Shown piece after piece: positions 4,884 through 26,885 of a stretch of 64,000 nt of DNA. The translations under genes were made by a program, and so were the position numbers. This stretch comes from Escherichia phage VEc25. Numbering within the stretch: position 1 is the stretch's first letter; every line of letters begins with the position of its first letter. Below the pieces are notes generated by a model. That model searched no databases. It had not been told where the DNA came from and was given only the letters and a program-made list of their open reading frames with translations. The DNA is taken from the sequence record MW175414.1; one strand, given 5' to 3'.

Positions 4884-5390
4884 ATGGTTGTTAATGGAAA
4901 ACTATTGTTAGGTGCTATGCCCATTAAGGGCATGGTTAACAGTAAACTCAGTTCAGGTGAGACTACATTTGGACTGGGAGAAGCTGGTTATGACATCCGT
5001 ATTAAACAGGATGTTACCTTCTACCGATTTCTTGGTTTGATTCCCTGCATCAAGATTAAAGATGAAGGAAAGACCAAGTGGAAGTTTGGCACTTTCACAT
5101 TAGCTTCTGCAATGGAACGTTTCAATGTACCTGCTGGCCTAGTAGGTATTGTCCATGACAAATCCACATGGGCAAGGCGTACATTATCTGTATTCAATAC
5201 CGTTATTGAACCAGGATGGTCAGGCTATCTGACTTTAGAACTGGTTTATCACGGTCGTAAAAAACTTCATATCCCTGCTGGTTCAGGTATTGCTCAGGTC
5301 ATCTTCCATGAGACAGTAGAGAATACTGCCTACAATGGGCGATACCAGAACCAGCCTAATCAACCTGTAGCTGCTAAGTCAGCTCGTTAA
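4884..5390 (+). CDS. dCTP deaminase/dUTPase-superfamily enzyme
   Basis: Size and motifs (GYDIRIK..., GWSGYLTLELV) fit the dCTP deaminase/dUTPase beta-clip fold; SD GAGG. Confidence 0.5.
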   Translation: MVVNGKLLLGAMPIKGMVNSKLSSGETTFGLGEAGYDIRIKQDVTFYRFLGLIPCIKIKDEGKTKWKFGTFTLASAMERFNVPAGLVGIVHDKSTWARRTLSVFNTVIEPGWSGYLTLELVYHGRKKLHIPAGSGIAQVIFHETVENTAYNGRYQNQPNQPVAAKSAR

Positions 5391-5403
5391 TTAAGGAAAT
5401 ATC

Positions 5404-5604
5404 ATGTCTATCTTTACTACTAAGGTTAATGGTCAGAAAGTTACTGTTGTTGCTCGTAACGTAGCTTACGTTACTGAAAACAGTGAAGGCCGTGGTGTAA
5501 TTACTTTTACTAACGGTGATTCCATTGATACTCAGGTAGGTTATGACTCTATCCGTCGTAACGTAGCTAAAGCACTTGATGGTGCTAAAGACATCGCAGA
5601 GTAA
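5404..5604 (+). CDS. Hypothetical protein (66 aa)
   Basis: ATG with AAGGAA SD; followed by terminator. Confidence 0.4.
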   Translation: MSIFTTKVNGQKVTVVARNVAYVTENSEGRGVITFTNGDSIDTQVGYDSIRRNVAKALDGAKDIAE

Positions 5605-5679
5605 GGTGTTTACAGTAATGGGGTTATATAGTAGCCCCATTTATGGAAATTCCTTTCTCCATTGCTTAGTCCCAACTAT

Positions 5680-5703
5680 GCCCACTTTATGTGGGCTTTT
5701 TTA
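5680..5703 (+). terminator. Rho-independent terminator
   Basis: GCCCAC/GTGGGC stem, TTTAT loop, TTTTTT. Confidence 0.6.
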
Positions 5704-5717
5704 ATTAGAGACTATGT

Positions 5718-5960
5718 ATGAGCAAACTAGGTATACACGTTTACATAGATGAAGCCGAGAAGATATACCCCTATACCTTATTTAGTTCCAGTGATTTACT
5801 TCAGATGAAGGTAAACTCCATCATCGTAAACTACTGGTATAACGATAAGAATTGGGATTACTGGGCTGCACGACAGAAGAGTAAGAACAAGAAAGATATA
5901 TTCAAAAGCAAATCAACTCCACATATGTTTCCTTGGTATCACAGAAACCGGAGATATTGA
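5718..5960 (+). CDS. Hypothetical protein (80 aa)
   Basis: ATG start; weak RBS; basic, aromatic-rich. Confidence 0.3.
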   Translation: MSKLGIHVYIDEAEKIYPYTLFSSSDLLQMKVNSIIVNYWYNDKNWDYWAARQKSKNKKDIFKSKSTPHMFPWYHRNRRY

Positions 5961-6421
5961 TGACAAGAATACCATTTTTAAAGCCTAGAAAACGAACACC
6001 AAAGCTGTATCAAAAGACTTCAGAAGACGGTTTAGCCTTGAACCAGAAAGCTATTAAGGCCGTTAGTGCACTGGTTCAAGGTAAACAGGATGCTGTTGCT
6101 TTACGTCTTGTTGTTGAGCAAATCTTAGTTGCTCTGACACTGGCTCAAGTAGCTAAACAAGAAGGTAAACAAGAAACCTGTAAAACAGCATTAGGTGCTT
6201 TGTACTGGTTGTATAAAGACCTTGCTGACAACTTTGAAATGTCTATGGATAAGTGGCAGGGCATTTCTTGTGTACTTGCTCTTAGAGAAGGGCAGGAATT
6301 ACTGTCTACTCTACCAAAAGCAGAATTTAAACTAGCCTACACTGGAGCACATAAGATTGTTCTTGGTTCCAGTAAGGACATCTTTAACCACCTCAAGCTA
6401 TTCAAGGCTTTCTATGATTAA
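5960..6421 (+). CDS. Hypothetical protein (153 aa)
   Basis: Track start 5933 is TTG; ATG at 5960 with GGAGAT SD and TGATG overlap with upstream stop. Confidence 0.4.
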   Translation: MTRIPFLKPRKRTPKLYQKTSEDGLALNQKAIKAVSALVQGKQDAVALRLVVEQILVALTLAQVAKQEGKQETCKTALGALYWLYKDLADNFEMSMDKWQGISCVLALREGQELLSTLPKAEFKLAYTGAHKIVLGSSKDIFNHLKLFKAFYD

Positions 6422-7355
6422 TGCAAAAATCCTCGCTGATAGTATTACTCTTTCTGGTGACCGCCTGGTAACAATGGAACTGGTTTATCCGCGTTTCATT
6501 CATTCAGAATTTATGACTCACCGAGCACTTAATCGTAATGCTTCCAGTAGTCGTGCTATTCCTACCCAACGCCTTATTGAGCAAGTTCGCAATGAACCAG
6601 TAATGCCAGTACATTGGGGTAAGAACCAGAAAGGAATGCAGGCAAGTGAAGAACTCACTCCTATGGAGATTAAGGATGCTGAGTTCATTTGGGAAAATGC
6701 TGCCTCTGCTGCTGCTGTATATGCTGAACAACTTCGTCGCGGACAAGTACATAAGCAGATTGTTAATCGTATTCTGGAACCATTCACGCATATCCGTGTA
6801 GTAGTGACAGCTACTCAATGGAATAACTTCTTTGGTTTACGCATTCATCCCGATGCTCAACCAGAGATTTGTGAATTGGCTACTAAGATGAAGGAACAGT
6901 ATGACCAATCAAAACCCCGTACCCTGTTGGCTGGGGAATGGCATTTGCCGTACATTACTAATAGTGATTACCTCGATGCTTACGATTATTGCAAACATCA
7001 ACGAATTACTCGTGATGAACCAAGTAGTGATGAGATTAATTGCCTGTTAGTAAAAATCTCTGCTGCTCGTTGTGCCCGTGCTTCCTATAACAACTTTAAA
7101 GGTACTCCTTCTACTATCGAAGAAGACCTGCGTTTGTTCTCTAAATTGGTTGAAAGTAAGCCTGTTCACGCAAGTCCTACTGAACATCAAGCAACTCCTC
7201 AGCATGTAATGAGTAAAGGCTTAAATGAGCCTACTGACCCATCTACATGGGAAAATGGCATTAGCCACATGGACAGAAATTTACGTTTATACTCAGGTAA
7301 TCTATGTGGCTGGATTCAATTCCGTAAGCTGCTTGCAGATGAATGCATCCACTAA
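6414..7355 (+). CDS. Flavin-dependent thymidylate synthase (ThyX-like)
   Basis: Track start 6357 is TTG; ATG at 6414 overlaps upstream stop (ATGATTAA); motif HRALNRNASSSRA resembles the ThyX RHR-x7-S signature (first Arg is Thr). Confidence 0.5.
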   Translation: MINAKILADSITLSGDRLVTMELVYPRFIHSEFMTHRALNRNASSSRAIPTQRLIEQVRNEPVMPVHWGKNQKGMQASEELTPMEIKDAEFIWENAASAAAVYAEQLRRGQVHKQIVNRILEPFTHIRVVVTATQWNNFFGLRIHPDAQPEICELATKMKEQYDQSKPRTLLAGEWHLPYITNSDYLDAYDYCKHQRITRDEPSSDEINCLLVKISAARCARASYNNFKGTPSTIEEDLRLFSKLVESKPVHASPTEHQATPQHVMSKGLNEPTDPSTWENGISHMDRNLRLYSGNLCGWIQFRKLLADECIH

Positions 7356-7400
7356 GTAGGTCTTTTGTGGGTGTAGACCACTCATAATAAACTCCGCTAT

Positions 7401-7428
7401 TTGCCTCCTACATGGAGGCAATTTTTTT
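7401..7428 (+). terminator. Rho-independent terminator
   Basis: TTGCCTCC/GGAGGCAA stem then TTTTTTT. Confidence 0.6.
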
Positions 7429-7452
7429 GATTCCATGTACATAGGAGGCTAT

Positions 7453-25967: not shown

Positions 25968-26039
25968 AGTGAACACACTATAGAACCTCCCAGCTTCCTC
26001 CAGATGTACGGCAATACATTAGCTGGTAGTGTGTTCACT
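25968..26039. repeat. 13-bp perfect inverted repeat (long hairpin) enclosing 46 nt
   Basis: AGTGAACACACTA (25968-25980) pairs with TAGTGTGTTCACT (26027-26039); inner CCAGCT/AGCTGG stem as well. Confidence 0.6.
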
Positions 26040-26122
26040 GATAGGTTGTACTATCACAGTCCAGACAATATCTGCGTGACTTAAAAAACAGATGGAGCCA
26101 GGTGGAATCCCTGGCAATTAAT

Positions 26123-26188
26123 TCCGGTGTAGGTACTAGTGTTGTGCACGACATGAGTGTTCTGGTTCGAGTCCAGACGCCGGAACCA
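26123..26188 (+). pseudogene. Truncated tRNA-like element (probable tRNA pseudogene)
   Basis: Canonical T arm TCTGG-TTCGAGT-CCAGA and 7-bp acceptor TCCGGTG/CGCCGGA with encoded CCA, but only 29 nt between them, too short for D plus anticodon arms. Confidence 0.3.
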
Positions 26189-26192
26189 ATTT

Positions 26193-26293
26193 GAAAGAAC
26201 TCTTATTTTGGTTACCGCAAAAGAAGTGAAAAATGTTGTGGAAAACTACTTCCCAATTAGGTTCGAATCCTAAACCAGAGTAAGAGTTCTTTC
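26193..26293. repeat. 13-bp perfect inverted repeat enclosing a 75-nt tRNA-like element
   Basis: GAAAGAACTCTTA (26193-26205) pairs with TAAGAGTTCTTTC (26281-26293). Confidence 0.6.
26206..26280 (+). ncRNA. tRNA-sized element with canonical acceptor and T arm but degenerate D/anticodon arms
   Basis: Acceptor TTTTGGT/ACCAGAG (two G-U pairs); T arm TTAGG-TTCGAAT-CCTAA; body lacks D-loop GG and no 5-bp/7-nt anticodon hairpin is found. Confidence 0.25.
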
Positions 26294-26307
26294 GAATTGA
26301 AGATTTA

Positions 26308-26381
26308 CAGGATATAGCTCAGTTTGGTAGAGCGTCTGCTTTGGGAGCAGAGTGTCGTAGGTTCGAATCCTGCTATCCTGA
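26308..26381 (+). tRNA. tRNA-Pro (anticodon TGG)
   Basis: Acceptor CAGGATA/TATCCTG; D arm GCTC-AGTTTGGTAGA-GAGC; anticodon stem TCTGC/GCAGA with loop TTTGGGA; T arm GTAGG-TTCGAAT-CCTGC; CCA encoded. Confidence 0.85.
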
Positions 26382-26386
26382 CCAAA

Positions 26387-26470
26387 TTAGTGCTCTGGTA
26401 TATTACTTTTAACCCCTAGGTTATGCCACAGTAATACAACAGATTGGGTCATCTGAAACCAGAGCACTAA
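26387..26470. repeat. 13-bp perfect inverted repeat enclosing 58 nt
   Basis: TTAGTGCTCTGGT (26387-26399) pairs with ACCAGAGCACTAA (26458-26470). Confidence 0.6.
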
Positions 26471-26833
26471 CCTAATGTGTGGGATGTAACAGTTAAATCC
26501 AGTTGCCGGAAGTGCAATTCTAGATACGCTGCCAATGTGTGAACGGTAAGGCTGTACAGGACTCGGACTCCCATCCCACCTCCTTATTTGAACCAGGTAT
26601 GAACGGCTTACTTAGTATTAACTGCATAGGGGTATGTTAGGGATACTTAGGTGGTAAGCAGTTGGTAAGAATCCAACATGGTTCATTCCCTATTAGCAGT
26701 AACATAGTCCTGAGTACGTGTGCTCTAAAGACAATATTGGTGAGACAGTCCAATAGCTGCTAAATTAGATTCGTCCATTCCTCTTGGATGTGTAGCGAGT
26801 GAAGGTAACACTTAAAAATCCATGACCCACAGA

Positions 26834-26864
26834 AGCCTCCGGTTAATCCTGGAGGCTTTTTTAT
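26834..26864 (+). terminator. Rho-independent terminator closing the tRNA/ORF-free region
   Basis: AGCCTCC ... GGAGGCT stem followed by TTTTTT. Confidence 0.55.
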
Positions 26865-26885
26865 TTAATTAAATAAGGAAGCAAG

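Follow-up and report, generated by a model that had tools for sequence, protein, structure and literature searches.

Sites of TTAATTAA in the window

The subject of this analysis is the word TTAATTAA in a stretch of 64,000 nucleotides (nt) from Escherichia phage VEc25 (MW175414.1), the whole of which is referred to as the window. An original prediction had described the word as recurring immediately 5' of the ribosome-binding sites of several rightward genes, and had suggested, on evidence that it called weak, that it may be part of a phage-specific promoter or simply AT-rich spacing. The window was identified as coliphage N4 DNA with 98-99% identity to EF056009, and a 4-kb piece around the first sites matched Escherichia phage N4 and close relatives of it at 98.4-99.1% identity. 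The alignment with EF056009 runs end to end from N4 position 7430, except for two insertions. Gene names were transferred from the N4 annotation and every start and stop was checked. The 39 non-coding segments total 3584 nt, or 5.6% of the window, the remaining about 94% being coding. N4 middle genes are transcribed by the phage RNA polymerase II (RNAPII, gp15/gp16) and N4 late genes by the host RNA polymerase. The two gene blocks are as follows:

239-27742, rightward: middle genes gp18-gp49 of the N4 annotation
from 27777, leftward: the virion RNA polymerase and the late structural and lysis genes, to gp69 at 62741

Six exact copies of TTAATTAA were found in the window, four in the middle block (5387, 8002, 23566 and 26865) and two in the late block (48169 and 51307). 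Together with a one-mismatch variant, and with N4 positions given where they were assigned, the sites are:

5387-5394, + strand: TTAATTAA at the dcd/gp27 junction; N4 12816-12823, identical
5701-5708, + strand: one-mismatch variant TTAATTAG (TTAATTAg), 9 nt 5' of the gp28 ATG; N4 13130
8002-8009, + strand: TTAATTAA at the gp32/rIIA junction; N4 15431, identical
23557-23573, + strand: AT-rich run TTCATTAATTTAATTAA in the 45-nt gp44/ssb spacer, with the copy at 23566; N4 30300
26861-26876, + strand: TTATTTAATTAAATAA, directly 3' of a terminator (26831-26860) and its T-tract, with the copy at 26865-26872; N4 33611-33618, identical
48169-48176, - strand: TTAATTAA, including the gp58 stop TAA (48173-48175), 21 nt before the gp57 start
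51307-51314, - strand: TTAATTAA, whose second TAA terminates gp61 (N-acetylmuramidase); the copy falls where the 5' end of gp60 overlaps

The coordinates predicted for the copies at 8002-8009 and 26865-26872 were right, and the one-off variant at 5701 reads TTAATTAG as had been stated. The copy placed at 23567-23574 is present one base away, at 23566-23573. The site given as 5377-5384 reads AGTCAGCT, the exact word being found ten bases away at 5387-5394. The two late-block copies at 48169-48176 and 51307-51314 lie beyond the range of the prediction. All of the sites are unchanged in EF056009, and no conservation signal for TTAATTAA was obtained from about 15 close relatives at 98-99% identity.

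The functional TAA stop of the upstream gene is found within four of the six exact copies (dcd, gp32, gp58 and gp61). The copy at 5387 begins with the final T of an Arg codon (CGT), continues with the stop TAA of the dCTP deaminase gene gp26 (5388-5390) and ends in TTAA. It reads cgT-TAA-TTAAGGAAA, and its second TAA continues into the Shine-Dalgarno (SD) sequence of gp27 (TAAGGA), with the result that the word overlaps this SD (TTAATTAAGGAAA) in a gp26/gp27 spacer of 13 nt. The copy at 8002 includes the gp32 stop TAA (8003-8005) followed by TAA again (TTAATTAATAA; agT-TAA-TTAATAA), and is separated by 11 nt from the rIIA SD TGGAGA and by 21 nt from the ATG. The copy at 23566-23573 does not overlap a stop codon; it sits in the 17-nt G/C-poor run, immediately preceding the ssb SD (GTAGGAAA) at 13 nt from the ATG. 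The copy at 26865-26872 lies 4 nt 5' of the gp48 SD (TAAGGAAG) and likewise 13 nt 5' of the ATG. Two of the sites adjoin the T-tracts of intrinsic terminators, namely the 26865 copy and the 5701 variant, which abuts the T-tract of the terminator at 5680-5696 (GCCCAC-TTTAT-GTGGGC TTTTTT). Further variants of the word were seen at late junctions, at 44961 and 48519/48523. A position immediately 5' of the SD was confirmed for 23566, 26865 and 5701 (0-4 nt upstream), and does not describe the 5387 copy, which overlaps its SD, or the 8002 copy, which is 11 nt off. When the flanks of the copies were compared, nothing common was found apart from SD-related bases.

Frequency of TTAATTAA at gene boundaries

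In the whole window the six copies compare with 2.1 expected from dinucleotide shuffles, and 2 of 100 shuffles reached six. The expected count was 2.3 with an order-1 Markov model and 4.3 with a maximal-order model. TTAATTAA ranked 2439 among the 32,029 observed 8-mers, and 882 8-mers had at least six occurrences. Permutation of codons within genes (6 against 5.0) was uninformative for this word, because the junction copies stay fixed.

Gene boundaries were analyzed separately by 2000 dinucleotide shuffles within each non-coding segment, which left coding sequence and stop codons untouched. Five copies of TTAATTAA touch non-coding DNA, against a mean of 0.75 in the shuffles (P about 0.001), and the word is the single commonest 8-mer at gene boundaries. 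With one mismatch allowed, 13 matches were counted against 7.9 ± 2.5, several of them self-overlaps. As a correction for the post hoc choice of the word, the shuffles were scored for any 8-mer with at least five copies at boundaries, which occurred in 1.3% of 1000. Exhaustive k-mer counts with a maximum-statistic shuffle test were also made on 21 upstream regions, some from the window and some from the left end of N4. The top 7-mer was TAATTAA, present in 5 of the 21 regions where the 95th percentile of the shuffle maximum was 4, and no longer word was enriched in these regions.

Pure chance in A/T-rich intergenic DNA, with the word noticed as a memorable palindrome, is an improbable explanation. 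The small excess in the whole window, the 882 equally or more frequent 8-mers, and a junction excess that rests on five sites of a word picked after being seen are what would be expected from it. Against it stand the 0.75 copies given by the within-segment shuffles, the P of about 0.013 across all words, and the top position of TTAATTAA among 57 distinct all-A/T junction 8-mers. The recurrence at junctions is real but small, and modestly above what AT content gives. The enrichment over shuffled intergenic sequence that had been asked of the motif was thus found for the exact word at gene boundaries; it was weaker with one mismatch, and the excess in the whole window is barely beyond chance.

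Gene-junction architecture and alternative explanations

The favoured explanation, to which a probability of about 0.72 is given, is that TTAATTAA is a by-product of N4 gene-junction architecture and not a discrete signal or promoter. The word would be a leftover where stop codons, A/T-rich leaders and terminator tails meet. Behind this stand the anatomy of the sites, the exclusion of the word from coding frames, its equal frequency at middle and late junctions and its lack of conservation in relatives. TTAATTAA equals its reverse complement, and on either strand two of its three frames contain TAA, which keeps it out of most coding frames. The sole coding frame permitted, in either orientation, is TTA-ATT-AAN. 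The coding interiors of the window contain no exact copy. In the N4 left end a single copy is coding (1910, in gp4), and it uses the permitted frame, as TTA-ATT-AAC. In a genome that is 94% coding, frame exclusion means that the word can survive solely at junctions. The spacers are 10-50 nt long, and a junction copy is therefore necessarily just upstream of the next SD.

Three ordinary features of the junctions could give rise to the word. TAA stops, frequently flanked by T, would supply part of it. TAA is the stop codon of 40 of 56 genes (71%); a T follows the stop in 24 of the 56 (43%) and precedes it in 20 (36%). The 10-15 nt 5' of each SD are A/T-rich and unstructured, as efficient ribosome loading requires, and the T-tracts of intrinsic terminators continue directly into such leaders. 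Barred from most coding frames, the word would then accumulate solely at junctions, near the next ribosome-binding site. Selection would act on stop context and leader openness, rather than on the word itself.

A/U-rich unstructured leaders are known to favour ribosome loading in E. coli (S1-dependent enhancement). At positions -12 to -22 before the 56 starts of the window, the A+T content was 55-77%, mostly 62-77%, compared to 58.5% for the window. The six motif-bearing initiation regions had minimum free energies (MFE) of -0.3 to -3.0 kcal/mol, all weaker than shuffles (z +0.9 to +1.6), the value of -0.3 kcal/mol being that of the gp48 leader at 26861-26876. TTAATTAA was unpaired in five of the six predicted folds and weakly paired at 5387. 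The motif leaders thus have the A/U-rich unpaired segment directly 5' of the SD that characterizes S1-dependent enhancers and ribosome standby regions. The N4 word resembles such regions in being all A/T and in overlapping the SD or lying directly 5' of it, and the A/T-rich zone is found at all 56 N4 genes in both blocks. The difference is that enhancers have no fixed sequence, whereas N4 repeats one exact 8-mer. A second likeness is to compact phage gene junctions with a strong UAA(U) stop context and closely spaced out-of-frame stops. TAATTAA puts a second TAA in another frame, the functional TAA is in four of six copies, and a T after the stop is common. Here the difference is that two copies have no stop codon, and that the word stops two of three frames and does not form a full cassette. 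AT-rich spacing, as suggested in the original prediction, was therefore essentially right, with the TAA stops, terminator tails and exclusion from most coding frames left out of the account.

Several points weigh against the junction explanation. The excess remains when stops and composition are fixed (5 against 0.75; P about 0.013 across all words). The arrangement T-TAA-TTAA is found at three stops, compared to about 0.2 estimated from the flank frequencies, and the copies at 23566 and 26865 are independent of any stop codon. The preference for TTAATTAA over more than 100 similar A/T words is left unexplained by it, and lineage-specific drift is an assumption. Avoidance of -10-like hexamers may be a small contributor to the preference. 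Of the 76 all-A/T junction 8-mers, 56 are free of TANNNT, compared to 116 of the 256 possible words, and this is a general bias which is not specific to TTAATTAA.

The lack of conservation was seen in phage G7C, which belongs to the same subfamily as N4, has orthologous gp15/gp16 and shares about 57% identity in SSB. TTAATTAA was counted seven times in N4, once in G7C (38 kb), once in Klebsiella phage KP8 (50 kb) and not at all in Erwinia phage Frozen (50 kb). The word was missing from three of four homologous G7C junctions. The dcd/gp27 junction of G7C reads aataaGGAAACAACatg and the gp32.1/rIIA junction reads ctataaGCAACATTTAAACTGGAGAG, both without the word, and the gp44/ssb leader retains the upstream CTGGTTGTTAATCAYT without the ATTAATTTAATTAA stretch. 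A terminator followed by TTTTTTTAATTA is also present in G7C, before gp29. The commonest junction 8-mers of G7C were other words containing the stop codon TAA, TAAGTAAA with five and AGAGTAAG with four copies.

A promoter is the main alternative. TTAATTAA, or an A/T-rich element overlapping it, could be the core of the RNAPII middle promoters; this was judged unlikely. The duplex would be melted, perhaps by gp1, and gp2 on the single strand would recruit gp15/gp16. Transcription would begin inside the word or immediately 3' of it, which would leave gp28, ssb and gp48 with very short leaders. The minimal N4 RNAPII promoter is reported to span -7 to +2 and to be highly enriched in AT pairs, and RNAPII initiation sites are restricted to the left half of the N4 genome (PMC4496689). 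The determinants of promoter recognition were cited as unpublished in the same 2015 review (PMC4496689). Initiation by RNAPII prefers thymidine, and two consensus motifs exist (PMC9163698). An 8-bp word of only A/T is a match to a short AT-rich core in composition alone. Four exact copies lie within the middle-gene block, and the 26865 copy and the 5701 variant come right after terminators, where re-initiation would be useful. The terminator with TTTTTTTAATTA retained before gp29 in G7C and the top rank of TTAATTAA among junction 8-mers also fit a promoter, and the depletion of sigma-70-like promoters means that middle genes need another promoter type.

The distribution of the word argues against this. 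Two exact copies and several variants are at late junctions, outside the left half, and of about 32 middle and about 21 late junctions, motif-like words were found at 5 and 4, respectively. No terminator lies upstream of three of the five middle-block sites and one of the spacers is only 13 nt, so that a new promoter is not needed at these three sites. Conversely, only two of about seven + strand terminators precede the word, which is not found after those at 191, 594, 1670, 7401 and about 13491. G7C encodes an orthologous RNAPII, and its homologous dcd/gp27, gp32/rIIA and gp44/ssb junctions lack the word. The word is palindromic and therefore gives no strand information, it stands anywhere from 0 to 11 nt from the SD, and it lacks an extended conserved flank as found at T7-type promoters. 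A T7-type enzyme would be expected to need more than the SD bases that the flanks share. Compared to RNAPII middle promoters, the word is similarly short, highly AT-rich and placed in the left-half middle-gene block; it differs in also occurring in the late block, in being palindromic, and in being neither linked to terminators nor conserved in G7C. A phage-specific promoter, as originally proposed, was consequently unsupported, with late junctions equally served and most terminators without the word. The narrower proposal that only the sites at 5701, 23566 and 26865, which have no stop codon and precede gp28, ssb and gp48, mark AT-rich RNAPII promoter cores is also doubtful. Two of these sites would stand back-to-back with terminators, and transcription units would end and begin within about 15 bp. 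If true, this would provide a sequence handle on promoter recognition by N4 RNAPII.

Other promoter types were also considered. T7-type promoters are about 17-23 bp long, asymmetric and near-identical between copies. The N4 word resembles them in being intergenic, in recurring before genes and in N4 encoding a T7-like enzyme; it differs in that the copies share 8 bp alone and their flanks are different. A T7-type asymmetric consensus of about 20 bp was not seen, the copies having no common flanks and the upstream regions no longer enriched word. A sigma-70 -10 element, defined as TANNNT with a -35 partner at 16-18 bp, was not seen either, TTAATTAA having no TANNNT on either strand. In a promoter scan the only match that overlapped a copy was at 7986-8013, and it was weak (9/12). 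A possible second promoter block, AAGACCTG, was discarded; all of its occurrences are in-frame GAA-GAC-CTG coding sequence.

Sigma-70 hexamers were themselves avoided in the window, with TATAAT found 2 times against 27 expected and TTGACA 6 times against 27. Sigma-70-like hexamer pairs numbered 57 against about 154 expected in the whole window. By quarter of the window they numbered 16, 9, 15 and 17, against 39.7, 32.3, 40.7 and 41.1 in shuffles, and the deficit extends to the late block transcribed by the host RNA polymerase. Coding constraints may be behind part of the deficit.

Very unlikely, finally, is that the ssb copy (23557-23573) is part of an A/U-rich translational operator, bound cooperatively by N4SSB for autorepression in the manner of T4 gp32, the other copies of TTAATTAA being incidental: the ssb leader UUCAUUAAUUUAAUUAAGUAGGAAAUAUAAAUG contains hardly any G or C and forms no stable structure (MFE -1.1 kcal/mol, z +1.0, centroid unpaired), and its copy of the word depends on neither a stop codon nor a terminator, but its AT-rich insert is absent from the G7C ssb leader, other N4 leaders are equally unstructured, and the operator would cover just one of seven sites. 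In T4, the operator of gene 32 is a leader poor in G and C that repeats units of the UUAAA type. The likeness lies in the G/C-poor unstructured leader before N4 ssb, and the difference in N4SSB being unrelated to gp32 and in the N4 stretch not being conserved in G7C. N4SSB is not known to regulate its own synthesis, which also counts against the operator.

Other features of the window and the place of TTAATTAA

Near two of the sites, other sequences were found to be shared with relatives. A 53-bp stretch at 7934-7986, in the 3' end of gp32, is 94% identical in Gamaleyavirus phages (Bp4, ECBP1, PD38 and others), whereas these genomes otherwise either fail to match this region or match it at about 70-78%. 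The match in Erwinia phages covers 7846-7988 with 76% identity. The 53-bp stretch ends 16 nt before the 8002 copy of TTAATTAA and might reflect a recent exchange or be a conserved element. N4 and G7C also share a conserved block, CTGGTTGTTArTCAyT, upstream of ssb. Hairpins without a T-tract were found at 22740-22775 upstream of gp44 (AGTCCTTTTC-TTGGTT-GAAGAGGACT) and at 12665-12700 upstream of gp35. Both are retained in G7C (30712-30745 and 20935-20965), at the same position with a different sequence. The two hairpins and the ssb-upstream block are possible processing or regulatory sites. Outside the window, a hairpin of the type of early promoters for the virion RNA polymerase (GCTGC-TCC-GCAGC) lies upstream of gp15 at N4 4545-4575 and is followed by TTTTGGTAATTAA, so that one copy of TAATTAA is in the 5' leader of an early transcript. 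GGTAATTAA is retained in G7C (5225-5250).

The most over-represented word in the window by far was GAACCAG, often as GAACCAGT. It was counted 58 times on the + strand and 38 times on the - strand, compared to 10.8 ± 3.0 and 7.6 ± 2.8 in codon-permuted genes, for example at 902, 1310, 5208, 12122, 31283, 46165 and 58909. Every reading frame and both gene blocks contain it; its flanks are uninformative, and the + strand is in excess throughout. The exact word was 12-fold enriched and its one-off variants only 4-5-fold. GAACCAG likewise ranked first among the heptamers of G7C and KP8, and it was abundant in Frozen. In Pseudomonas phage LUZ7 it was just about 2-fold enriched, the top words there being AAACCAT, GAAACCA and CAAACCA, and no enrichment was observed in T7. 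Of the sites that could be aligned between N4 and G7C, 8 of 18 on the + strand and 2 of 11 on the - strand are shared. As this is fewer than half, the word keeps its abundance although its positions change. Each strand has one site per 1.1-1.7 kb, a density that would suit priming sites, for example. In the literature, a search for GAACCAG gave nothing but primer sequences.

GATC was found once in the window against 207 expected, the single site being N4 20711. The number was one in the N4 genome, zero in 50 kb of KP8, 15 in 38 kb of G7C and 6 in T7, and 288 in Frozen, which encodes a DNA methyltransferase, and 291 in LUZ7. Dam-site avoidance is known in enterobacterial phages, and the scarcity in N4 looks like such avoidance taken to an extreme.

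In the 1.5-kb gap between gp47 and gp48, four transfer RNA (tRNA) genes, Asn-GTT, Ser-TGA, Thr-TGT and Pro-TGG, were located at 25706-26384. An Rfam scan of the window returned these four tRNAs and nothing else. Published descriptions of N4 give three tRNAs (PMC3715699).

The first of the two insertions relative to EF056009 is 700 bp long, at 17221-17922 within the DNA polymerase gene gp39. It encodes a homing endonuclease open reading frame (ORF) of 204 amino acids with HNH_3 and NUMOD4 domains (17259-17873, + strand), and divides the family-A polymerase into ORFs at 15392-17356 and 17836-18666 (654 and 276 codons). No group I intron was found at this insertion in Rfam at the gathering threshold. 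The second insertion, at about 40330-40917 between gp51 and gp52, has an ORF of 187 amino acids with a GTG start (40311-40874, - strand), which matched HNH endonuclease families of PHROG (phrog_2081, E = 1e-38) and no Pfam model.

For the biology of N4, TTAATTAA is most likely an ordinary feature of a well-studied phage. Its value is small, and lies in documenting the compact order of N4 gene junctions, in which a TAA stop or a terminator tail is followed by an open A/T-rich leader and then by the SD.

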